DNA from: Nitrosomonas europaea
Lineage (GTDB): Bacteria > Pseudomonadota > Gammaproteobacteria > Burkholderiales > Nitrosomonadaceae
Assembly: GCF_900167395.1 (NCBI RefSeq)
Contig: NZ_FUWK01000064.1
Location: forward strand, 1-7,000
Length of the DNA: 7,000 nucleotides
Direction: 5' to 3'
Below, piece after piece: positions 1-7,000 of this stretch. The position numbers and the translations under genes were made by a program. Numbering within the stretch: the stretch's first letter is position 1; each line of letters opens with the position of its first letter. The notes beneath the pieces were generated by a model. It worked only from the letters and a program-made list of their open reading frames with translations. It was not told the origin of the DNA and did no database searches.

Positions 1-278
1 TGGCACAAGCCGGTATTGAACCGTCTGTCGGCAGTCGCGGTGACAGTTACGATAATGCGCTGGCTGAAACGATCAATGGCCTGTACAAGGCTGAACTGAT
101 ACACAGGAGAGCTCCCTGGAAAACCAGGGCTGCTGTGGAGCTGGCAACTTTGGAATGGGTTGCCTGGTATAACCATCAACGCCTGCTTGGATCTATCGGG
201 TATATTCCTCCAGCTCAGGCTGAAGAAAACTACCGACAAACCCAGGATAATAAGACATTGATGGATATTTTACTTTAA
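1..278 (+). CDS. IS3-family transposase OrfB (DDE integrase domain), C-terminal 91 codons; 5' end lies outside the window
   Basis: Frame 3 is open from the window edge to TAA at 276-278. The translation AQAGIEPSVGSRGDSYDNALAETINGLYKAELIHRRAPWKT...WVAWYNHQRLLGSIGYIPPAQAEENYRQ matches the conserved C-terminal block of IS3-family OrfB, including the DNA..E glutamate region of the DDE triad and the WYN..R tail. Confidence 0.9.
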   Translation, partial: AQAGIEPSVGSRGDSYDNALAETINGLYKAELIHRRAPWKTRAAVELATLEWVAWYNHQRLLGSIGYIPPAQAEENYRQTQDNKTLMDILL

Positions 279-311
279 CCAAATAGCCTCCTCGATTGTC
301 GGGACGGTTCA
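1..311 (+). mobile_element. IS3-family insertion sequence, right-hand portion (partial)
   Basis: The transposase 3' end is followed by ccaaatagcctcctcgattgtcgggacggttca. Its reverse complement, TGAACCGTCCCGACAATCG..., has the TGAAC.. / ..GTTCA terminus typical of IS3-family inverted repeats. Putting the end at 311 is an inference, because the other IR is not in the window. This stretch is visibly more AT-rich than the flank. Confidence 0.6.
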
Positions 312-452
312 AGGCGCACTGAGCACGCTCACCAAGGAAGCCAACGAGCAGTCTCATCTGTAGCAACGTGGGCAGGTAGGATTCTTTCATCTCAAATCTC
401 ATCATTCGTTTGTTCTGCCGGCGCGACCGGCGCAGGCAGTGATATCCACTGT

Positions 453-1367
453 TTAGTCACAATCCGCTACCGCGCGGGCCGCATCCAAAGGCGCATACCC
501 TGGCGCCAGCACGGCGTTCTTGACGCCATACAAGGCCAAGTGGTCCTTGAGCCAAAGTCTGTACTCAGGCCCGCGAAGGCTATGGTCTGCGGAGCAGTCG
601 ACGCTCCACTTGCGCAGGATGTAGCCAGCAGTCGCTGCACGGAGCTTCATCTTCACCATGCCGCCGGTCATGCCGTAATCCATCTCCGCGATCTCGGGGC
701 GCGGTTGGTCCGGGTGCGGCACCAGCTCCAGCTCCACAATCCGCGTCCACTGGATGTCCTGGTCACTTTTTTCGTGGGGCAGGACGTGGCTGTCTTTCAG
801 CATCACGGAACGCTGCATGCGCGTGATGACAAAGTCCCGGAAATCCTTGCTGCGTCGATCGAAGGCGCGGACATGCCAGCGCAGGCCGTTGTCGATTAAC
901 GCAAACGGGACGATCTCGCGCTCAGTCTCGCCGCTCGACAAGGAGTGGTAGGTGACTTTCAGCGGGCGCTCCTGATGGATTGCCCGAGTAACACAAGCGA
1001 GCGTGTCGAGTCCTGGCTTTGTGAGTCTGGAAGGAATCTCACAAGTGATCCAGGACTTGAGGGCCGAAGGCTCGCCATCACCGAAACCCTGTGAGAGCCA
1101 CGCCAAGACCCGCTCTGCAGGGAAATCAAAGACTGGCGTGAATCCATCCGCGTAGCCGTACACCTTGTTCTTGGTGTCGTAATCCAGGTTGCCAGGGGCG
1201 AGATCCTTGTAGATTCCGATGTCCCGGGTTGCCGCTGCCGCCTGGATGCCAAAGCGCGACACCAGGTCTTGGCGGCGAATCTCTCCGATGAAGCGCAGGC
1301 GCAACTCGATAAACGCAAGTCGGTCGCGCTGGGGCTGGGTCAGGTCTGCAAGCTGTTCGTTGGACAT
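453..1367 (-). CDS. WYL-domain transcriptional regulator (N-terminal wHTH, central WYL domain, C-terminal extension), BrxR/CapW-like
   Basis: 304-aa ORF, ATG at 1365-1367 and TAA at 453-455. The N-terminus RLAFIELRLRFIGEIRRQDLVSRFGIQAAAATRDIGIYKDLAPGNLDYD resembles the wHTH of BrxR/CapW-type regulators. The WYL-type core is RPLKVTYHSLSSGETEREIVPFALIDNGLRWHVRAFDRRSKDFRDFVITRM (about aa 134-184). ORFs on the opposite strand inside it look like GC-driven shadows. Confidence 0.85.
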   Translation of the reverse strand: MSNEQLADLTQPQRDRLAFIELRLRFIGEIRRQDLVSRFGIQAAAATRDIGIYKDLAPGNLDYDTKNKVYGYADGFTPVFDFPAERVLAWLSQGFGDGEPSALKSWITCEIPSRLTKPGLDTLACVTRAIHQERPLKVTYHSLSSGETEREIVPFALIDNGLRWHVRAFDRRSKDFRDFVITRMQRSVMLKDSHVLPHEKSDQDIQWTRIVELELVPHPDQPRPEIAEMDYGMTGGMVKMKLRAATAGYILRKWSVDCSADHSLRGPEYRLWLKDHLALYGVKNAVLAPGYAPLDAARAVADCD

Positions 1368-1416
1368 CCTGGCTGCCGTTTCGGGTTAATGATCGCTAGT
1401 TGGTGCTCTTGCGGGT

Positions 1417-1445
1417 AGTATATGCCTCGCACGATAATATGTCGA
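1417..1445 (-). promoter_or_regulatory. Putative sigma70-type promoter of the WYL regulator gene
   Basis: On the minus strand: -35 TCGACA (complement of 1440-1445), 17-nt spacer, -10 TATACT (complement of 1417-1422). The -10 lies about 50 nt upstream of the ATG at 1367. Confidence 0.35.
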
Positions 1446-1479
1446 TGAATTGACGTTGCGCATCAGTCCATCGCATATT
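1436..1479. promoter_or_regulatory. Inverted repeat (candidate operator) in the divergent WYL / nuclease intergenic region
   Basis: AATATGTCGATG (1436-1447) and CATCGCATATT (1469-1479) are reverse complements apart from one extra T, with a 21-nt spacer. A third half-site-like ATATGC lies at 1420-1425. The left half overlaps the predicted -35 of the regulator gene. The right half overlaps the predicted -10 of the nuclease gene. Confidence 0.4.
1450..1479 (+). promoter_or_regulatory. Putative sigma70-type promoter of the small ORF / DUF3223-HNH gene
   Basis: -35 TTGACG (1450-1455), 18-nt spacer, -10 CATATT (1474-1479). Confidence 0.35.
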
Positions 1480-1499
1480 GTTACCGACAGAGGGCTACG

Positions 1500-1625
1500 A
1501 TGAGCGGAAGCCGATGGGGTCAGCCGGGCGTGCCCCACAAAGGACGGCCCTGCGTGGACGTCGTCGATCTGCGGGCGGACGCCGGGCTTGCTATTGCTGC
1601 GCCAGGAGAAATGAGAGATGGCTAA
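1500..1625 (+). CDS. Hypothetical 41-aa upstream small ORF, possibly translationally coupled to the nuclease gene
   Basis: ATG at 1500 is preceded by GAGGG (1490-1494) at 5-nt spacing. Translation: MSGSRWGQPGVPHKGRPCVDVVDLRADAGLAIAAPGEMRDG. Its TAA (1623-1625) overlaps the ATG at 1618 within ATGGCTAA. No recognisable family, so it could simply be a 5' UTR. Confidence 0.2.
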   Translation: MSGSRWGQPGVPHKGRPCVDVVDLRADAGLAIAAPGEMRDG

Positions 1626-2364
1626 ACCTGTCGTAATCGGCTCGCGGAGCTTCCGAACCCAGAGCAGTGCCCTCGACCACTATAAGGCGCTGCTTCACCG
1701 GTATCAGGACGGTCAGCGGATCGCCGACCCGGCTGACCACACAGACCTGGTGGCGCTCATCGAGCGTTTTGACCCGGTGCTCGATGCTGTTGGGGAGCCC
1801 GCAAAAGGTGCCGGCCAGATTGCTCACTTTGAGCGACGCCTGAATACAGGGATCGGCTGGAGCACGCCGGGGTTCTGGGTTGTTCGGCAGGACGGCACTG
1901 AAACCGACTTCTCGTACATCGATGCGGTCAAGGGCAGGCCGAAGGGGCGGTCCCAAGATTTCTACAACGCATGCCGGCAGGCGGTCGCACTCGACCTCGT
2001 CCTCGCCAAGAAGCAGGCGTTTGCCCAGTACGGCGATGATCAGGGCCGGGTTGAGTGTGAGTTAACCGGAAAGATGGTCACCATCGACGACGCACACCTT
2101 GACCACGCATGGCCGTACTTCTCGCACATGGTGAGTGGATTTCGGGCTGCCAGGGGTTGGTCGAGGGACATCCCGGACGGCATCGTTTCCACCCCGGCTG
2201 ACGGCCAGACCACGGCAACATTCCTGGACAGCGCTGTGACTGAGGCATTCCGAGCGTTCCACCATGACCAAGCGGTCCTTCGGGTTCTCAGCCGGGAAGC
2301 AAACCTACAGACCGCGAGTTCAGCCCGCCGGCCAAAGGTTGCACGGCCAGTCCGGCTAGCGTGA
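1618..2364 (+). CDS. DUF3223 (DCL-like) domain protein with a C-terminal HNH-like (beta-beta-alpha-Me) nuclease motif
   Basis: 248-aa ORF with GGAGA (1605-1609) 8 nt before the ATG. An in-frame TGA at 1612-1614 rules out a longer form. The N-terminal half, FRTQSSALDHYKALL...GAGQIAHFERRLNTGIGWSTPGFWVVRQDGTETDFSYIDAVKG, fits the DUF3223/DCL pattern (..F.V.R.DG...DFSY..). The C-terminal half, VECELTGKMVTIDDAHLDHAWPYF...FHHDQAVLRVLSREAN (aa 145-229, nt about 2050-2304), fits an HNH arrangement: Cys-x-x-x-Gly, then H-x-DH, then a distal Asn. Confidence 0.75.
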   Translation: MAKPVVIGSRSFRTQSSALDHYKALLHRYQDGQRIADPADHTDLVALIERFDPVLDAVGEPAKGAGQIAHFERRLNTGIGWSTPGFWVVRQDGTETDFSYIDAVKGRPKGRSQDFYNACRQAVALDLVLAKKQAFAQYGDDQGRVECELTGKMVTIDDAHLDHAWPYFSHMVSGFRAARGWSRDIPDGIVSTPADGQTTATFLDSAVTEAFRAFHHDQAVLRVLSREANLQTASSARRPKVARPVRLA

Positions 2365-2406
2365 CCCGCTCCGGTCGCCTGCGATCAGGCCCGCGTAGAC
2401 GTCTGG

Positions 2407-2446
2407 CGGACGCGGGTTCAATTCCTCAAATGGGAATCGAACTGAC
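2407..2446 (+). repeat. att-like core element, copy A: conserved flank plus 11-7-11 imperfect palindrome
   Basis: cggacgcg GGTTCAATTCC tcaaatg GGAATCGAACT gac. Arms are 2415-2425 and 2433-2443 (9/11 complementary), spacer 2426-2432. Outside the spacer, 28/33 positions are identical to copy B and 30/33 to copy C. Starts 43 bp after the nuclease gene stop. Confidence 0.8.
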
Positions 2447-2604
2447 GCCCTGTCTGATGCACTCGGCTGATGATCTCGGCCGGGCGGAACTGGTAGAACT
2501 GCAGGCAGCAAGGGCTGGAGTCCCCACCTTTCCGCAGCAGTGCGAAGCGGTTGTAAGGCGCTGAGTTACTGAGGTTTGGCGCAGGGTTCCACCCCACCCA
2601 GACC

Positions 2605-2660
2605 CCGCAGGAGTTCGAATCTTTCCGCATGAACCCGCAGGAACCCTCACTAGCCCGCAC
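2605..2660. repeat. Helically phased CCGCA(G/T/C) motif array
   Basis: CCGCAG at 2605, CCGCAT at 2625, CCGCAG at 2635 and CCGCAC at 2655 all sit in the same 10-bp register. A further CCGCAG lies at 2532-2537. Confidence 0.5.
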
Positions 2661-2768
2661 GGCCCGATGCTAGGACGTTGATTTTCAACAAATCGCTCGA
2701 TCGATCCGCGCTTGCGGACTGCGGACTTCCAATGGGCCGGAAATCTGGCTCGCCCAGACGGCTCTCGG

Positions 2769-2833
2769 TACCGACACGTTGCAAACAGTCGGTACTTCTC
2801 GATAACTACCCGACGAATCGGAACATCTCAGCT
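2769..2833 (+). repeat. Conserved box, copy A (TACCGAC / GTCGGTA / TACCCGAC arrangement)
   Basis: taccgac(2769-2775)acgttgcaaaca gtcggta(2788-2794) cttctcgataac tacccgac(2807-2814) gaatcggaacatctcagct. A hand alignment to 4757-4818 gives about 56 identical columns of 65, with 3 short indels. Confidence 0.75.
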
Positions 2834-3008
2834 CGCCCTGATGTTGCCCCTGCTTGCTGACACAGCTTGGAAGTTCTGGCTGCAATATTGCCCCCCCAAT
2901 CGCTGTGGAAGGTAGCTCCCTGGGCAAGTGCAATTGGAGGGGGATCGCTGCGTAGGGCCGTGTGCCCCCCATCCTGCAGCGTGACCTGATTGGGTCAAGG
3001 CCGGGTTG

Positions 3009-3311
3009 TCATGCAGGCAGTTTGGCTGCAAGCAGTTCGACCTTCTCGATATTGGGCGGAGAACTGAGCAAGGTCGCGGCGTTGGCCATCAAGGCCGCGG
3101 CGATCTGGCCGTTCAGATGTGCTTGGCGACCTGCCTCATCGGCAAAGGCATCGAACACACCAAACGTCGAAGGGCCAAACTTCAATGCGAACCAGGCAGT
3201 GGTGCCGGACTCGGCGTTGGCGAGCGGCAGTGCGCTGGCCAGGAAGTCGGCAAGCGCAGCCTCCTGGCCGGGTTTGGCTTCGAGGCGAACAAACAGGGCG
3301 AGCTTGGTCAT
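3009..3311 (-). CDS. Antibiotic-biosynthesis-monooxygenase (ABM, ferredoxin-like dimeric alpha-beta barrel) family protein
   Basis: 100-aa ORF, ATG at 3309-3311 with AAGGA 7-8 nt upstream, TGA at 3009-3011. MTKLALFVRLEAKPGQEAALADFL...TTAWFALKFGPSTFGVFDAFADEAGRQAHLNG has the size and pattern typical of ABM-domain proteins. It pairs divergently with a GlxA-type regulator, as is common for this family. Confidence 0.8.
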   Translation of the reverse strand: MTKLALFVRLEAKPGQEAALADFLASALPLANAESGTTAWFALKFGPSTFGVFDAFADEAGRQAHLNGQIAAALMANAATLLSSPPNIEKVELLAAKLPA

Positions 3312-3425
3312 ACTGTAATCCTTTGGGTAAATGGGTTAGGTGAAGGGATCGACGAGCCTGCAGTCTAAATCTTCATGACAGCCATCTCTATAGGCAATAA
3401 TGACAACTTTGATATCATTGTTGCC

Positions 3426-4388
3426 ATGAAACTCCACATCCTTGTTTGTGATGGCGTGTTTGATCTGGGGCTTGCGGCGCTCACTGACACAGTGGGCTTG
3501 GCCAATGCGATGTCGGGCTCGCTGCCACAGGCTCCCGCGCACATAGAGCTCACGCTGGTGGGCGTGCGGCGTCGCATCCGAACTGCGCAAGGCTTGACGG
3601 TCCCCGTGGTCACTGCGCGTGGTGTGCCGGAACCAGACGTCGTGCTCGTGCCCGCGTTTGGTGACAAGATGCCTGACACGCTCTCGGCTCGGCTCACACG
3701 CCCCGACGTGCCCGATGCGGTCGCCATGCTACAGCAGTGGTCCACCGCTGGCGCGCACCTTGGTGCCGCCTGCTCCGGTAGTTTCTTGCTTGCAGAGAGT
3801 GGCCTGCTTGATGGACATCGTGCGACGACGTCATGGTGGCTGGGGCCGATGTTTCGGCAGCGCTATCCGAACGTCACGCTGGACGAGTCACGCATGATCG
3901 TGAACTCGACACGCTTCACTACCGCGGGTGCCGCTTTAGCCCACGTCGACTTGGCCTTGCGCATCATCCGGGGGCGCAGTCCAGCGCTGGCGACCCTGGT
4001 GGCACGCTATCTGCTGGTCGAGACACGCAGTTCGCAAGCCGAGTTCGTGATTCCCGACCACCTTGCGCATGCCGACCCGATGGTGGAGCGCTTCGAGTGC
4101 TGGGCCAGACGTCGGCTCGCGAAGGGGTTCTCGCTGGCCGAGGCGGCCAGCGCCGCGGGCACAAGCGAGCGCACCTTGGCGCGGCGGCTGCAAAGCGTTT
4201 TGGGCAAGACACCGCTGTCGTATTTCCAGGATCTGCGCGTGGAGCATGCCGTGCATCTCTTGCGCACCGGAAACGCGAGCGTCGACCAAGTCGCCGCACA
4301 GGTCGGGTACTCGGATGGGGTGACCCTGCGGGCCCTGTTGCGCCGCAAGCTGGGCCGGAGTGTCAGAGAGTTGCGACGCGGTGGATGA
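3426..4388 (+). CDS. GlxA-family AraC-type transcriptional regulator (N-terminal DJ-1/PfpI-like domain, C-terminal AraC HTH)
   Basis: The ORF is open from 3375, but the family-typical N-terminus MKLHILVCDGVFDLGLAALTDTVGLANA starts at the ATG at 3426. The DJ-1-like nucleophile-elbow region is GAACSGSFLLAESGLLDGHRATTSWW. The C-terminal AraC HTH is SLAEAASAAGTSERTLARRLQSVLGKTPLSYFQDLRVEHAVHLLRTGNASVDQVAAQVGYSDGVTLRALLRRKLG. Start-codon choice (3375 vs 3426) is uncertain. Confidence 0.85.
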   Translation: MKLHILVCDGVFDLGLAALTDTVGLANAMSGSLPQAPAHIELTLVGVRRRIRTAQGLTVPVVTARGVPEPDVVLVPAFGDKMPDTLSARLTRPDVPDAVAMLQQWSTAGAHLGAACSGSFLLAESGLLDGHRATTSWWLGPMFRQRYPNVTLDESRMIVNSTRFTTAGAALAHVDLALRIIRGRSPALATLVARYLLVETRSSQAEFVIPDHLAHADPMVERFECWARRRLAKGFSLAEAASAAGTSERTLARRLQSVLGKTPLSYFQDLRVEHAVHLLRTGNASVDQVAAQVGYSDGVTLRALLRRKLGRSVRELRRGG

Positions 4389-4649
4389 CCAGAGGCGTTT
4401 GGTGTATGTACGGCTGGAGACCGCCGGGAAACTGACGCAGGCCAAACGGCGCATTTGGACCTGACAAAACTACTGCCCGCCACGGCGCGCAAGCTCCAGT
4501 TTGACCCCGGACAAAGTTTTGCTGGCAATGTCGTGGTTGAGCAAATCAATACCTTGATTGAGCAACGCTGTGCACTGACGATTCGGCGGCTCACCGACCC
4601 CGCCGCCGACAATGACGCAGCCGCCGAGCCCACCGTTTGAACTACCGTG

Positions 4650-4689
4650 CGGACACGGGTTCGATTCAGGGTTTGGGAATTGAACCGAC
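4650..4689 (+). repeat. att-like core element, copy B
   Basis: cggacacg GGTTCGATTCA gggtttg GGAATTGAACC gac. Arms are 4658-4668 and 4676-4686 (9/11 complementary), spacer 4669-4675. Same orientation as copies A and C. Confidence 0.8.
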
Positions 4690-4756
4690 ATCCCATCGCA
4701 GACGAGTTTGATGCCCGTTTCCGGCGACTGAATCGCCCAGATGGCCGGCGGTGCCG

Positions 4757-4818
4757 CCGACGTTGCAAATCGTCGGTACTTGTCGATATCTACCGACGAA
4801 TCGGAACATTTCTCAGCT
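4757..4818 (+). repeat. Conserved box, copy B (CCGAC / GTCGGTA / TACCGAC arrangement)
   Basis: ccgac gttgcaaatc gtcggta(4772-4778) cttgtcgatatc taccgac(4791-4797) gaatcggaacatttctcagct. GTCGGTA and the downstream TACCGAC form a perfect 7-bp inverted repeat with a 12-nt spacer. The box ends exactly at the stop codon (complement of 4813-4815) and last Ser codon of the HTH gene. Confidence 0.75.
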
Positions 4819-5025
4819 GACACTGACCTGGGCCACCACGGTCTTGGTCGAGGTCGCCAGGCACGACTCCTCGTATGCCTCAATGTCGGCCTGCCGGTAG
4901 AGCACGCGCCCGCAGAGCTTCAGAAACTTGGGGCCGATCCCCGCGCTGCGCCAGCGCTCCAGGGTGGCCTCACTGATACTCCAGCGGGCAGCGAGTTGTT
5001 TTTGATTGAGGTGAGCGACTTCCAT
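4813..5025 (-). CDS. Excisionase/AlpA/MerR-like helix-turn-helix DNA-binding protein (about 70 aa)
   Basis: MEVAHLNQKQLAARWSISEATLERWRSAGIGPKFLKLCGRVLYRQADIEAYEE matches the excisionase-family HTH pattern (L...q.A..l.vS..Tl.rWr..G.gP.f.k.G..v.Y...di..w). The ATG at 5023-5025 is preceded by GGAGA at 5-nt spacing. The ORF track's longer form (to 5088) needs a TTG start and has no RBS. Confidence 0.75.
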   Translation of the reverse strand: MEVAHLNQKQLAARWSISEATLERWRSAGIGPKFLKLCGRVLYRQADIEAYEESCLATSTKTVVAQVSVS

Positions 5026-5108
5026 CTTGGTCTCCGTCCGAACGAGTTGGCAGGAGTCCATGAGGGCGCTGTTCCGGCCGCGAGCCAAGGCAATTCCAGG
5101 AAGCGCCG

Positions 5109-6233
5109 CTACTCGGGCAGATCATTCAGCTCGTAGCTGGTGCTACGCCCGCCGGCATCCGATTTGCGCAGCACGCCCCGCGTCAGCAGATCGTTGATGT
5201 CGCGCAGTGCCGTGTCCGGCGAGCATTTGGCGATGGCCGCCCACTTGCTGCTGGTGAGCTTGCCCTCGAAACCATCGAGCAGCTTGTTCAGCAATTTCAC
5301 CTGCCGCTCGTTCAACGGGGTCGTCGCCCATCGCTGCCAGAACCGCGCTTTCGTCAGGACAGCGTCCAGCGTGTGCTGGGCCTGGTCGACGGCGCGATGA
5401 AGCGTGTCGAGGAACCACGCAAGCCACTCGGTGACATCCATCGACCGCTTCTGCGTCCTCTCCAGGATGTCGTAGTAAGCCTTGCGCTCGCGCTGGATCT
5501 GCGCCGACAAACTGTAGAAGCGTTGCGGGCTGCCATCGGCACGCGCCAGCAGCAGATCGCCAATGGCCCGGGCGATACGGCCATTGCCATCATCGAATGG
5601 GTGCAGAGTGACGAACCACAGATGGCCAAGGCCTGCCTTGAGCAGTGGCGGTTCGTTTAATGTGCCATTCAGCCAGTCGAGGAAGCGGCTGGTTTCGGTC
5701 TCGAGGCGATCGGCCGGCGGTGCTTCGAAATGCACCCGCTGGCGGCCGATGGGTCCGGACACCACCTGCATCGGGCCGGTGGCATCGTCGCGCCAGCCGC
5801 CGACGTTGATCTTGGAGAGCCCAGAATAGCCGGTAGGAAACAGTGCGGCATGCCAGCCGAACAGACGCTCACGCGACACCAGTGCCTGGCAGTTGGCGGT
5901 GGCATCGAGCACCATCTCGACCACGCCTTCGACATGCCGATCGACCGGAGCGAGCGCGCCGATGTCAACGCCCAACCTGCGGGCGATGGACGAGCGCACG
6001 GATTCAACGTTGAGCTGCTCGCCTTCGATCTCGCTGGTCTTGACCACGTCCTCGGTGAGCGCCGCGAGACTCGCTTGGTCACGCAAGGCCATGCCGACGT
6101 CAGCCAGACGCCCCATCAAGAGCCCTTGGGCACGACTGACCTCAGCCATGGGCTCGGCCAGCGCCGCCAGGTCGAAGCGCCAGTTTGGCCAGTCACTGGC
6201 CTGCCAGATGTATTTGTATTCGCCGCTATTCAT
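5109..6233 (-). CDS. Fic-family protein (AMPylase/adenylyltransferase-type), class II, SoFic-like architecture (DUF4172-like N-terminus, Fic core, C-terminal wHTH)
   Basis: 374-aa ORF. The canonical Fic motif HPFDDGNGRIAR is at aa 211-222 (nt 5568-5603). The intramolecular inhibitory motif TSEIEG, fitting (S/T)xxxE(G/N), is at aa 66-71 (nt 6021-6038). The N-terminus YIWQASDWPNWRFD is typical of DUF4172. The C-terminal segment LNERQVKLLNKLLDGFEGKLTSSKWAAIAKCSPDTALRDINDLLTRGVL looks like a winged helix. Confidence 0.95.
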   Translation of the reverse strand: MNSGEYKYIWQASDWPNWRFDLAALAEPMAEVSRAQGLLMGRLADVGMALRDQASLAALTEDVVKTSEIEGEQLNVESVRSSIARRLGVDIGALAPVDRHVEGVVEMVLDATANCQALVSRERLFGWHAALFPTGYSGLSKINVGGWRDDATGPMQVVSGPIGRQRVHFEAPPADRLETETSRFLDWLNGTLNEPPLLKAGLGHLWFVTLHPFDDGNGRIARAIGDLLLARADGSPQRFYSLSAQIQRERKAYYDILERTQKRSMDVTEWLAWFLDTLHRAVDQAQHTLDAVLTKARFWQRWATTPLNERQVKLLNKLLDGFEGKLTSSKWAAIAKCSPDTALRDINDLLTRGVLRKSDAGGRSTSYELNDLPE

Positions 6234-6239
6234 GCGGAG

Positions 6240-6268
6240 ATTATGGACTGCAATCTCCGCACGCGCAA
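6240..6268 (-). promoter_or_regulatory. Possible promoter abutting the Fic start codon (would give a leaderless or very short-leader mRNA)
   Basis: On the minus strand: -35 TTGCGC (complement of 6263-6268), 17-nt spacer, -10 CATAAT (complement of 6240-6245), then 6 nt before the ATG (complement of 6231-6233). The same DNA can fold as an 8-bp hairpin (6234-6241 / 6253-6260), so the interpretation is ambiguous. Confidence 0.25.
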
Positions 6269-6373
6269 GTCAATCGCCGCGCATTGTGCGGTGAATGTGG
6301 TCACCATTCGCCGCATGACGGATCGCCTTGCCCCAGGAATGGGTGTAAATGGGTGTGTTATTGGCTGTGGCAA

Positions 6374-6413
6374 CGGACGCGGGTTCAGTTCCCGTTTCGG
6401 GAATTGAACTGGC
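6374..6413 (+). repeat. att-like core element, copy C
   Basis: cggacgcg GGTTCAGTTCC cgtttcg GGAATTGAACT ggc. Arms are 6382-6392 and 6400-6410 (9/11 complementary), spacer 6393-6399. Downstream, 6422-6450 (gcagacgaggttgaggccgtattccgact) is also similar to the sequence following copy B (4698-4729). Confidence 0.8.
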
Positions 6414-6510
6414 CACGGAAAGCAGACGAGGTTGAGGCCGTATTCCGACTACCAATCAGTCCGAAAAACCTGCTTGATCGTCCACTGCCGACGGGCGTAC
6501 CGGCAGGCTT

Positions 6511-6560
6511 TTCGCTCCGGTTCGCACTGGTTCGCAGCAACCCGCAGCGCTTCGATTCCG
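6511..6560. repeat. Five tandem degenerate 10-mers (TTCGCnnnGG type)
   Basis: ttcgctccgg / ttcgcactgg / ttcgcagcaa / cccgcagcgc / ttcgattccg fall exactly in 10-bp register from 6511. The motif core YCGCA resembles the phased CCGCA array at 2605-2660. Confidence 0.5.
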
Positions 6561-6608
6561 TACTTTCAATAGTCGTTTGATGCGGGGTACCACCCCACCA
6601 CCAATACC

Positions 6609-6641
6609 AAAAAACCCAACCGATGAAGGTTGGGTTTTTTT
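6609..6641. terminator. Rho-independent terminator, bidirectional in form
   Basis: aaaaaacccaacc gatgaa ggttgggttttttt. The 9-bp GC-containing stem is 6613-6621 / 6628-6636, with a 6-nt loop. The stem-plus-run of 7 T (6635-6641) is mirrored by a run of 6 A upstream (6609-6614). Confidence 0.8.
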
Positions 6642-6662
6642 CTGTTTGAAATCCTTACTGTA

Positions 6663-7000
6663 ACCTGAGTTCGGGATAAGAAAAGAGGAAGTGAGCGCCC
6701 GCCTTTTTGCGTAAGATTATGTTTCCAAAAACAAATCAATCGCATTCAGGAGGCGCTCATGGACAGTTTAACTGAACTTTTTTGTCTCATAGATGATTTC
6801 TGCTGCCAATTCGAGCCCGCTTTAGAACGCCGCCTTCTGGAAACAGGGGTAAAGAAGCGCAAGCGCTGCAGCGGGTTGAGTTTGTCGGAGTTGATGACCT
6901 TGACCGTTTTGTTTCATCAATTGCGCTTTCGCCAGTTCAAGAGTTTCTACCTGGTTTACGTATGCCGTCACTTGCAGGCTGAGTTTCCGAAGTTGCCGAG
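6663..7000 (+). mobile_element. IS982-family insertion sequence, left-hand portion (partial)
   Basis: An AT-richer block contains the IS982-type transposase start. The proposed left terminus ACCTGAGTTCGGGATAAG at about 6663 is a guess based on the ACC.. termini remembered for this family. The other end is outside the window, so the boundary could lie anywhere in about 6642-6700. Confidence 0.55.
6759..7000 (+). CDS. IS982-family transposase, N-terminal about 80 codons; 3' end lies outside the window
   Basis: ATG at 6759 is preceded by AGGAGG (6749-6754). MDSLTELFCLIDDFCCQFEPALERRLLETGVKKRKRCSGLSLSELMTLTVLFHQLRFRQFKSFYLVYVCRHLQAEFPKLP matches the conserved IS982 N-terminal pattern (ELFC..DDFC..F.P......R.R...LS.SE.MT....FH.....FK.FY........FP.L). 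Confidence 0.85.
   Translation, partial: MDSLTELFCLIDDFCCQFEPALERRLLETGVKKRKRCSGLSLSELMTLTVLFHQLRFRQFKSFYLVYVCRHLQAEFPKLP

Follow-up and report, generated by a model that had tools for sequence, protein, structure and literature searches.

A probable tandem array of integrase-less islets of the ssrA-targeting kind in Nitrosomonas europaea, with palindromic T-arm copies at the edge of conserved end units

This work concerns a stretch of 7,000 nucleotides (nt) from Nitrosomonas europaea (contig NZ_FUWK01000064.1, positions 1 to 7,000), referred to below as the window, in which a 40-nt palindromic element occurs three times among unrelated gene modules. The window probably contains small integrative islets that lack an integrase, arranged in tandem and belonging to the kind that targets the transfer-messenger RNA (tmRNA) gene, ssrA. 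The islets are a BrxR/DUF3223 module with end unit A, an antibiotic biosynthesis monooxygenase (ABM)/AraC module with a truncated end unit B, and an AlpA-like/Fic module with end unit C. Each palindrome is the 5' edge of a conserved end unit of 190–230 nt that ends in ...CCCACC|ACCA, where the bar marks the breakpoints described below, and is not a free-standing site. At its left end an islet carries block L1 or L2, after which an AlpA-like HTH_17 gene normally follows on the other strand; the cargo genes come next, and this right-end unit of 190–230 bp closes the islet with a mimic of the ssrA 3' end.

The palindromes and their end units

The 40-nt element occurs at 2407–2446 (A), 4650–4689 (B) and 6374–6413 (C), all on the + strand, and consists of two 11-nt arms around a 7-nt spacer that reads tcaaatg in A, gggtttg in B and cgtttcg in C. 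Recounting from the sequence gave identities outside the spacer of 28/33 for A and B, 30/33 for A and C and 27/33 for B and C, in agreement with a first-pass annotation of the window that had reported three same-orientation copies identical at 27–30 of 33 positions. A search with the two-arm pattern GGTTCRRTTC-N8-GGAATYGAAC, allowing up to 2 mismatches, matched exactly palindromes A, B and C and nowhere else in the window, each of them on both strands because the site is palindromic, and 200 dinucleotide-preserving shuffles of the window gave 0 matches (0 expected by chance). The similarity continues beyond the 40 nt, with B and C sharing 79 nt (repeat D1). The repeats of the set D1–D12 connect the regions 3' of the copies; among them D3, D4 and D12 relate 2745–2829 to 4728–4812. 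The components of the array, all on the + strand, are as follows.

2407–2446, + strand: palindrome A, 11-7-11; its 5' part, CGGACGCGGGTTCAATTCC, is a copy of the T-arm segment of ssrA (seen on comparison with the 3' ends of tmRNAs)
2407–2598, + strand: end unit A (type A), finishing ...GGTTTGGCGCAGGGTTCCACCCCACC; its 3' end aligns with 85 other unit ends
2599–2830, + strand: left-end block L1 of the next islet (P'-arm-like); the same block follows 21 of 85 unit ends and is then followed by HTH_17 genes
4650–4689, + strand: palindrome B (repeat and pattern search)
4650–4728, + strand: end unit B (type B), of which only the first ~79 nt are left (BLAST comparison with the complete unit of locus L029)
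4733–4812, + strand: last ~80 nt of an L1 left-end block, abutting the stop codon of the HTH_17 gene (84% identity to L1 positions 150–229)
6374–6413, + strand: palindrome C (repeat and pattern search)
6374–6599, + strand: end unit C (type C), complete, finishing ...TCAATAGTCGTTTGATGCGGGGTACCACCCCACC (alignment with 30–47 homologous units of other genera)
6600–6608, + strand: ACCAATACC, pseudo-ssrA 3' end and probable crossover region (contexts diverge after it)
6609–6640, + strand: intrinsic terminator like those that directly follow ssrA genes (13-bp stem and T run)

Three main types of unit, corresponding to A, B and C of the window, were distinguished when the listed matches were oriented and compared. 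Type B and C units measure 208–230 nt and type A units ~192 nt, and all end in TTTGRYGCRGGGTNCCAYCCCACC. Unit C aligns over ~229 nt with units from ~30 genera and unit A, which is read as a P-arm-like island end, is conserved at 81–88% in many genera. Unit B is incomplete: the comparison with the full unit of L029 gave 99% identity over query positions 1–81 only, and full type B units elsewhere are ~210 nt long and end in CCCACCACCA. Within the units, CAGACGAGGTTGA and TCAATAGTCGTTTG are conserved ~140 nt apart (approximately 6423–6435 and 6566–6579 in the window) and together make up an inverted repeat, which showed no covariation; the pair may represent protein-binding sites in the arm.

The sequences on either side of the units follow a limited number of patterns. 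Upstream flanks fall into ~8 classes, mostly 3' ends of cargo genes. The 3' ends of 85 units in 69 loci were compared; 55 continue with ACCA, 51 of these with a T-run terminator analogous to, but different from, that at 6609–6640, and another 21 continue with block L1. The resulting order of an islet is the unit of its predecessor, L1 (~230 nt) or L2, the AlpA-like HTH_17 gene on the opposite strand, the cargo and the next unit, where the L2 left end is made of a terminator and ...GGTTCCTGCGGA...CTGCGGACTTCGCC. The order unit, L1, HTH_17, cargo, unit was seen in most of the 18 loci mapped. Homologues of the HTH_17 protein were found in 54 loci among the matches listed and lie beside L1 or L2 in every one of the 18 mapped. 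The first-pass proposal that the modules are integrase-less islets of a kind accumulated by repeated site-specific integration is supported, as is its description of a same-orientation array of attachment (att) type sequences dividing unrelated modules.

Two departures from this order were observed in the window. Elsewhere L1 extends to the stop codon of an AlpA-like HTH_17 gene, but at 2599–2830 it is followed by the ABM/AraC cargo, the AlpA-like gene of this block having been lost. At 4733–4812 the remnant of a second L1 block has been joined to truncated unit B by a deletion. Two loci that at first appeared to hold a HipBA module between inverted palindromes alone (L097 and L123) proved to contain short, reverse-oriented units ending in GCACCACCAT.

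Distribution across genomes

The pattern CGGGTTCRRTTC-N7-9-GGAATNGAAC was scanned against 185,579 species genomes, with matches returned as 8-kb tiles. The scan returned at least 120 stretches, nearly all from Beta- and Gammaproteobacteria. Among the matches listed, a tile held 1–3 copies in the same orientation and almost every tile came from a different genome, the copy numbers per genome being lower bounds. The five largest records among the matches listed were four chromosomes and a contig of 4.4 Mb; four of the five gave one tile each and the fifth held no genuine copy. Within the 28 kb of N. europaea examined there were 3 copies, all in this array. Exact-protein look-ups placed the window proteins in Nitrosomonas europaea-like genomes (AL954747.1) and several metagenome contigs.

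No units were found in 5,426 Escherichia coli genomes. Eight Pseudomonas aeruginosa megaplasmids carry only the last 50 nt of a unit (90% identical; L150 4001–4051), in a phage-tail gene remnant between two copies of ISPpu21; this fragment between IS5 copies is uninformative.

Relationship to the tmRNA gene

Intact tmRNA genes were identified by ARAGORN in 7 of the 8-kb stretches, and all 9 palindromes in those stretches (9/9) lie downstream of ssrA on the same strand, at a distance of 0.9–3.6 kb. All ssrA genes examined end in ...TGCGGACGCGGGTTCGATTCCCGCCGGCTCC|ACCAAT followed by a terminator. The end units resemble this gene at both of their edges: every unit begins with 19–24 nt, (TG)CGGACGCGGGTTCRATTCC, that match the T-arm segment of ssrA as a copy, and its last 6–9 nt are a copy of the 3' end of the gene. 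Alignment of the L095 tmRNA with copy A by BLAST extended over 32 nt at 87.5% identity, confirming the T-arm copy. A tmRNA link had been suggested in the first-pass annotation and is supported by these results, since the first 19 nt of each window element (CGGACGCGGGTTCRRTTCC) match the T-arm segment and ssrA lies upstream in 7 related stretches.

The flanks of the gene and of the units are also shared. In L089, ssrA is followed by 70 nt that are almost the same as those found after the units in L022 and L047, and with respect to these flanks unit ends and the ssrA end are therefore interchangeable. Where an array begins at ssrA itself, the order is ssrA, L2, AlpA-like gene, Fic gene and unit (L117 and L095), with longer versions in L031, L059 and L089. 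The possibility that the palindrome represents an attL formed on ssrA was discarded, as no upstream context is tmRNA body and all are the ends of protein genes.

Breakpoints between related genomes

The position at which related loci diverge was located by comparing the contexts to the right of copy C. Four contexts were aligned: the window and N. europaea L013, in both of which IS982 follows, L007, which has a P4-like integrase there, and L011, where TacAT and a serine recombinase are found. These are identical from the Fic gene through copy C, over 229 nt, up to ...GGGGTACCACCCCACCACCA, and diverge ~3 nt past it, after which each context has its own terminator of a hairpin and T run. Additional islets are present immediately after the CCCACC of unit C in L041 and L024, where the unit is 99% identical to that of the window, and in L020 (88%). 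The comparative breakpoints are placed at CCCACC|ACCA (2598/2599 and 6599/6600 in the window), 190–225 nt downstream of the palindrome. Together with the 6–9 nt of identity to ssrA, the breakpoints point to CC|ACCA as the probable position of crossover.

The first-pass annotation had divided the region into three modules at the palindromes and had taken the 11-7-11 palindrome for the crossover core, expecting strains to differ by precise junctions there. The division into modules is correct in kind, but the borders lie ~190–225 nt to the right of palindromes A and C. The proposed core was not supported by the comparison of genomes: related genomes break at CCCACC|ACCA, and among the presence/absence differences between close relatives no breakpoint fell in the spacer of a palindrome. 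L021 and L124, which share a palindrome and its left flank, diverge immediately after the right arm and not in the spacer.

Comparisons with plasmids and with a second strain gave further borders. Against Pseudomonas/Stutzerimonas plasmids the identity was <50% to the left of 2401, ~80% over 2401–2700, which corresponds to unit A and the start of L1, and ~98% over 2701–4484. An initial plasmid comparison had suggested a module border exactly at 2406; the identity profile shows changes at ~2401 and ~2700 instead. The ABM/AraC cargo (2936–4478) is 96% identical on plasmids of Marinobacter and Comamonas, with no palindrome or unit within 2.5 kb of it on those plasmids. N. europaea ATCC 19718 has 3578 bp more than the window between two AraC paralogues, comprising genes for an oxidoreductase of the old yellow enzyme (OYE) type, an HbpS-like protein and a second AraC, where the window has a single AraC. 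The paralogues are 98–99% identical and the extra segment is also present in several contigs (window 3375–4650 compared with L013 11758–16349). This difference looks like a deletion or duplication through homologous recombination between the AraC paralogues, unrelated to the palindromes; a palindrome was considered as its border and rejected, the border lying between the paralogues.

One further junction was noted in the Logan contig L015, which is 100% identical to window 283–3342 and then continues with core genes (OsmC, holA, lptE and leuS) instead of AraC. The junction (L015 3060, window 3342/3343) is in the divergent promoter region of ABM and AraC, not at a palindrome, and the contig is either a rearrangement or an assembly chimera.

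Integrases and a proposed route of accretion

P4-like tyrosine integrases adjoin the units in other genomes, in keeping with the first-pass reading. In L007, L039, L044 and L086 the integrase gene starts ~165 nt after the CCACCA of the unit and runs in the same direction, preceded by a terminator and 3–4 repeats of the GGGGTAAC type that reach the start codon. The L007 protein contains the domains Arm-DNA-bind_3, Phage_int_M and Phage_integrase, the other three are 59–66% identical to it, and the unit ahead of it is identical to unit C. The AlpA-like/Fic segment of the window (4733–6603) lies between the L1 remnant and unit C and encodes no integrase, the arrangement of a cis-mobilisable element (CIME). 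Large serine recombinase genes were also observed near units, at L147 1841–3406 and 5128–6507, where they flank a unit, and at L011 20349–20747.

A similar arrangement is found in Stenotrophomonas phage S1, the integrase of which is 55% identical to that of L007. Its complete genome has the order AlpA (Pfam Phage_AlpA), ~125 nt with GGGGGTAT repeats, CCCACCTCCACCAA, terminator, repeats and int, where CCCACCTCCACCAA is a tmRNA-type 3' end. A half palindrome, GGAATTGAACCCGC, which is an inverted copy of the ssrA T-arm, is located ~125 nt before the attP core (L149 2222–2235) and sits inside the 3' end of the AlpA gene. By analogy, the layout of the phage supports the view that the unit may be the P arm of an attP and that each junction of unit and L block may be an attP-like joint between neighbours.

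On this basis a route of accretion can be proposed. A P4-like tyrosine integrase of related elements, not encoded in the window, would recombine the att site of an element with the ssrA 3' end. Once the element is integrated, its right-end unit together with ACCA would recreate a usable target beside the old ssrA terminator, and the next element would insert at the recreated target, so that islets would pile up head to tail. Islets without an integrase, such as those of the window, may be mobilised in trans. Each unit and L block would then resemble an attP with P arm, core and P' arm, and the palindrome would form the outermost conserved block of the unit, with two inverted copies of the ssrA T-arm (GGACGCGGGTTCRATTCC) around a variable spacer of 6–7 bp. 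Inverted repeats of the core type around CCACCA were sought by eye and gave no clear result.

Several observations weigh against the interpretation of the window as an array of ssrA-targeting islets. No integrase is encoded in the window, and the identity of unit ends to ssrA at the probable core is short, 6–9 nt of CCACCA(AT). No ssrA was found within ~10 kb on either side of this array in N. europaea and parts of the array are also present on plasmids; the placement of this array at ssrA is therefore not established. The same upstream cargo class is found with unit types A, B and C, and L026 is a hybrid in which the left arm follows the upstream class and the right arm and spacer follow the downstream type, both of which would fit exchange inside or at the palindrome. 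A palindrome with a much shorter unit or no recognizable unit was found in L021, L053, L124, L127, L139 and L141. In two loci a palindrome without a recognizable unit lies next to an integrase gene, at L096 2517–2533, 17 nt from the start codon of a P4-like integrase, and at L139 12169–12206, 4 nt from the stop codon of a 326-amino-acid (aa) Int_N/Phage_integrase protein.

Nature of the palindrome

The palindromes were characterized from 75 distinct copies. The spacer was 7 bp long in 57 copies and 6 bp in 18, and highly variable in sequence. Position 6 of the arms formed a G.T combination in 42/75 copies and A.C in 18/75, with one arm reading CGATT and the other CAATT. The type A palindrome extends to 18-7-18 (GGACGCGGGTTCAATTCC ... 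GGAATCGAACTGGCGTCC) and that of L141, 525 nt after a real ssrA end, is a near-perfect 17-7-17; thus both arms are copies of the ssrA T-arm segment. In close relatives with the same arms and flanks (L031, L032 and others) the spacers were found as reverse complements, GCGTTTG compared with CAAACAG or CAAACGC, and type A palindromes have a core that resembles that of type C inverted. The flipped spacers suggest inversion of the loop by template switching or by recombination between the arms. Most likely the palindrome acts as double-stranded DNA, as a putative two-fold protein-binding site at the outer edge of an att arm, and its binder could be the core-binding domain of the integrase or an AlpA-like factor.

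The palindrome might instead be the core site of a tyrosine recombinase, with monomers bound to the arms, strand exchange in the spacer and modules swapped exactly there. This is unlikely, although the geometry of 11-bp arms around 6 or 7 bp is suitable, and arms that both copy the T-arm would be expected of a symmetrized site for a recombinase that recognizes ssrA. The palindromes directly beside integrase genes, the mixing of cargo classes with unit types, the L026 hybrid and the copies with very short or absent units are also in its favor, and different spacers within one array would stabilize the array against deletion. Close relatives, however, break at CCCACC|ACCA or elsewhere and never in the spacer, the L021/L124 divergence included. 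The spacers match neither each other nor the equivalent position of ssrA (CGCCGGC or CCCCGGC), and ssrA therefore cannot be the partner site. The coupling of arm variants, G.T or A.C in 60/75 copies, argues for palindromes that were inherited whole, and most loci have no recombinase nearby: among the matches listed, P4-like integrases were found in 6 loci compared with AlpA-like genes in 54. The related proposal that the palindrome is a symmetric site for a dedicated tyrosine recombinase, such as those of L096 and L139, that moves cargo cassettes within defence islands independently of ssrA is improbable to the same extent.

It is distinctly unlikely that the palindrome is a regulatory operator, bound by the AlpA-like HTH_17 protein or another regulator, that controls or insulates transcription at the island end and takes no direct part in recombination. 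Most integrase-less islets have no gene in common other than the AlpA-like one, the combination of conserved arms and free spacer is that of dimeric operators, and a cargo gene often ends 5–20 nt upstream, pointing at the palindrome. The distance between half-site centers is 18 bp, however, which is unusual for a simple operator of a helix-turn-helix dimer, no promoter-like sites were detected beside the three window copies, and an operator would leave the copy of 19–24 nt of ssrA sequence unexplained.

A role as RNA or as a single-stranded hairpin, either as a terminator or mRNA 3' stabilizer or with the whole unit as a transfer RNA (tRNA)-like or tmRNA-like small RNA ending in CCA, is very unlikely. 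The stem would be 10–11 bp long, some copies could form a T-arm-like stem-loop (GCGGG TTCAGTT CCCGT in copy C), and the unit ends in ACCA followed by a terminator. The spacer flips between relatives, as in GCGTTTG and CAAACAG, suggest that the hairpin is extruded at least during replication. Analysis of 36 units by RNAalifold nevertheless gave compensatory changes in 0/33 pairs and a covariation term of -0.35 kcal/mol. Stem position 6 is mostly a mismatch or wobble, and the strand that would pair there is not the same in types A and C. No match was obtained with Rfam (E up to 10) or ARAGORN. A terminator scan of the window flagged only 6609–6640 and none of the three palindromes, which lack T runs, and in the Fic context the neighboring gene points away from the palindrome.

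The chance that the element is a dispersed repeat of the repetitive extragenic palindromic (REP) or miniature inverted-repeat transposable element (MITE) type, unconnected to mobile islands, is negligible: it is a short intergenic palindrome that is widespread across genera, but among the matches listed an 8-kb stretch holds 1–3 copies and almost every stretch is a different genome, four of the five largest records gave a single tile and the fifth no genuine copy, all three copies in 28 kb of N. europaea are in this array, and the copies always occur in the unit/left-end/AlpA architecture or close to predicted provirus ends, so that the high-copy scatter named in the first-pass annotation as the observation that would speak against an att-type site was not what was found.

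Gene content of the window

The genes around the three copies were those described in the first-pass annotation, as judged by Pfam and existing annotation, which had also noted correctly that the window lacks an integrase; none was detected with Pfam. Searches of the window for a tRNA or tmRNA gene with ARAGORN and Rfam (E up to 10) gave only matches at chance level. The genes are listed from left to right.

3–275: 3' end of an IS3-type transposase (rve domains)
453–1367, - strand: BrxR-type WYL regulator (Pfam WYL)
1618–2364, + strand: DUF3223 protein, last cargo gene before unit A (Pfam DUF3223)
3009–3311, - strand: cargo, 100-aa open reading frame (ORF) annotated as ABM in plasmid records
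3375–4388, + strand: cargo, AraC-type regulator with a DJ-1/PfpI domain (Pfam)
4813–5088, - strand: AlpA-like HTH_17 gene, the conserved left-end gene of islets (Pfam HTH_17)
5109–6233, - strand: cargo, Fic/DUF4172 protein (Pfam)

The BrxR-type WYL gene and the DUF3223 gene are the right-hand end of a defence island that is truncated here and has unit A as its end unit. The assignment of the regulator follows from its WHD_BrxR and BrxR_CTD domains and from L011, L014, L016 and L017, in which a full bacteriophage exclusion (BREX) operon lies upstream of an identical BrxR gene. In the window the gene is an orphan; in those four loci (L011, L014, L016, L017 1–9750) it closes the operon, which encodes PglZ, BrxC, BrxB, BrxA, BrxE and GmrSD. 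Among the matches listed, BrxR homologues were found in 20 loci and P4-like integrases in only 6, and DUF3223 homologues lie directly upstream of type A units in 25. To the left of BrxR (window 1–278, L013 1–8661) there is an IS3-family element followed outwards by a CD-NTase gene of a cyclic-oligonucleotide-based anti-phage signalling system (CBASS), and genes for a patatin, a second BrxR, a helicase and a DprA-like protein. The called 3' end of the CD-NTase gene overlaps the IS3 element and was possibly cut by it.

The 100-aa ORF at 3009–3311 has no Pfam match; copies of the ABM-annotated protein that are 99–100% identical were found in 7 other loci. An Rfam match to CRISPR-DR29 on the - strand at 4121–4156, inside the AraC coding region, was weak (23.6 bits against a gathering score of 39) and was taken as chance because no repeat array is present. 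A 61-aa ORF at 4455–4640 ends 9 nt before palindrome B and has no Pfam match. Its last ~40 nt belong to U1, a class of upstream flank that is found ahead of a type B unit in 16 loci among the matches listed, and the ORF might be either a genuine small gene or a portion of the type B end unit. Homologues of the Fic protein were present in 53 loci among the matches listed, across Beta- and Gammaproteobacteria, and were 77–99% identical in 31. After the terminator at 6609–6640 an insertion sequence (IS) transposase of the IS982 type starts.

Comparison with known systems

The prophage CP4-57 of E. coli has a P4-like integrase, is located at ssrA and carries IntA and AlpA. The integrases adjacent to units belong to the same family as those of P4-like prophages at ssrA (L007 and phage S1, 55% identity), and the order AlpA, arm, core of tmRNA 3' end type, terminator, repeats and int is shared with phage S1. 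The phage differs in having a half site only, with no 11-7-11 palindrome and a shorter arm, and the elements described here differ from P4-like prophages in being islets of 2 kb.

CIMEs, which accrete at a single att site, are an established concept derived from the integrative and conjugative elements (ICEs) of streptococci. The first-pass annotation had drawn this comparison. Like CIMEs, the islets are integrase-less segments between att-type sites, in tandem with or near elements that encode an integrase. They differ from the streptococcal CIMEs in their target, integrase family and att sequences, and mobilization in trans would be a shared property only by analogy.

Short palindromic 11-N-11 sites between small unrelated gene modules are also a feature of the pdif (XerC/XerD) modules of Acinetobacter plasmids. 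A pdif site is 28 bp long with an 11-6-11 structure, its arms follow the XerC/XerD consensus, and the sites alternate in orientation. The arms GGTTCRATTCC/GGAATYGAACC of the present element bear no resemblance to the dif consensus, most spacers have 7 bp instead of 6, the sites all point the same way and the breakpoints are not at the sites. The attC sites of integrons are 57–141 bp long with R''/L''-L'/R' boxes (GTTRRRY), and integrons have IntI, attI and Pc nearby. The element was tested against this pattern and did not fit, there being no integrase in the window, a length of 40 nt and a GTTCAAT that departs from GTTRRRY.

The closest comparison among islands is with those of Pseudomonas that lie immediately downstream of tmRNA, which have been captured experimentally and found in ~100 genomes (PMC12595487). 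A direct repeat of the tmRNA 3' end borders these islands, which carry IntY, AlpA and defence cargo (PMC12595487). Shared with the I23/I44/I55 class are a probable integration at the extreme 3' end of tmRNA with a short direct repeat at the far border, a tyrosine integrase on the side adjoining tmRNA, an AlpA-family gene, the absence of self-transfer genes, the adjoining of other islands, and defence cargo, represented here by BrxR (BREX in the sister contigs) and Fic, with HipBA and CBASS in related loci (PMC12595487). Unlike the Pseudomonas islands, most islets here are integrase-less and 2 kb in size, the AlpA-like gene is at the left (P') side on the opposite strand and not at the 3' end, and the N. 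europaea array was not found next to ssrA (PMC12595487). The far border here is a unit of 190–230 bp with a T-arm palindrome, compared with an end sequence of 23 bp, and the repeat shared with ssrA is CCACCA(AT), compared with 14 bp (PMC12595487).

The displaced target fragment that marks the ends of islands within genes for tRNA and tmRNA is the standard Islander principle (PMC4383910). A copy of the target 3' end at each island border, permitting tandem arrays, is common to both. In contrast to the Islander case the copy here is split, the unit having 19–24 nt of T-arm at its 5' edge and a minimal CCACCA at its 3' edge, with ~190 nt of island-specific conserved DNA between them and the T-arm copy duplicated in inverted form (PMC4383910). 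No description of an inverted T-arm duplication at the outer edge of an end unit was found in a limited check of the literature.

Significance

As far as the present evidence goes, the locus is a neat but ordinary case of islands accreting at an att site of the tmRNA type. The att arm has at its outer edge an inverted T-arm duplication, an unexplained feature of integrase assembly on DNA. Were the palindrome the exchange site after all, Beta- and Gammaproteobacteria would have a new cassette system, similar to dif modules or integrons, in which different spacers would act as specificity or stability codes. The end units, with their T-arm palindrome, ~190 nt of conserved DNA and CCCACC|ACCA, provide a border signature for widespread, mostly integrase-less islets that carry Fic, toxin-antitoxin, BREX-linked and regulatory genes and move between Beta- and Gammaproteobacteria, including onto plasmids. 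The islets lack an integrase, so island finders that rely on integrase genes are likely to miss them.

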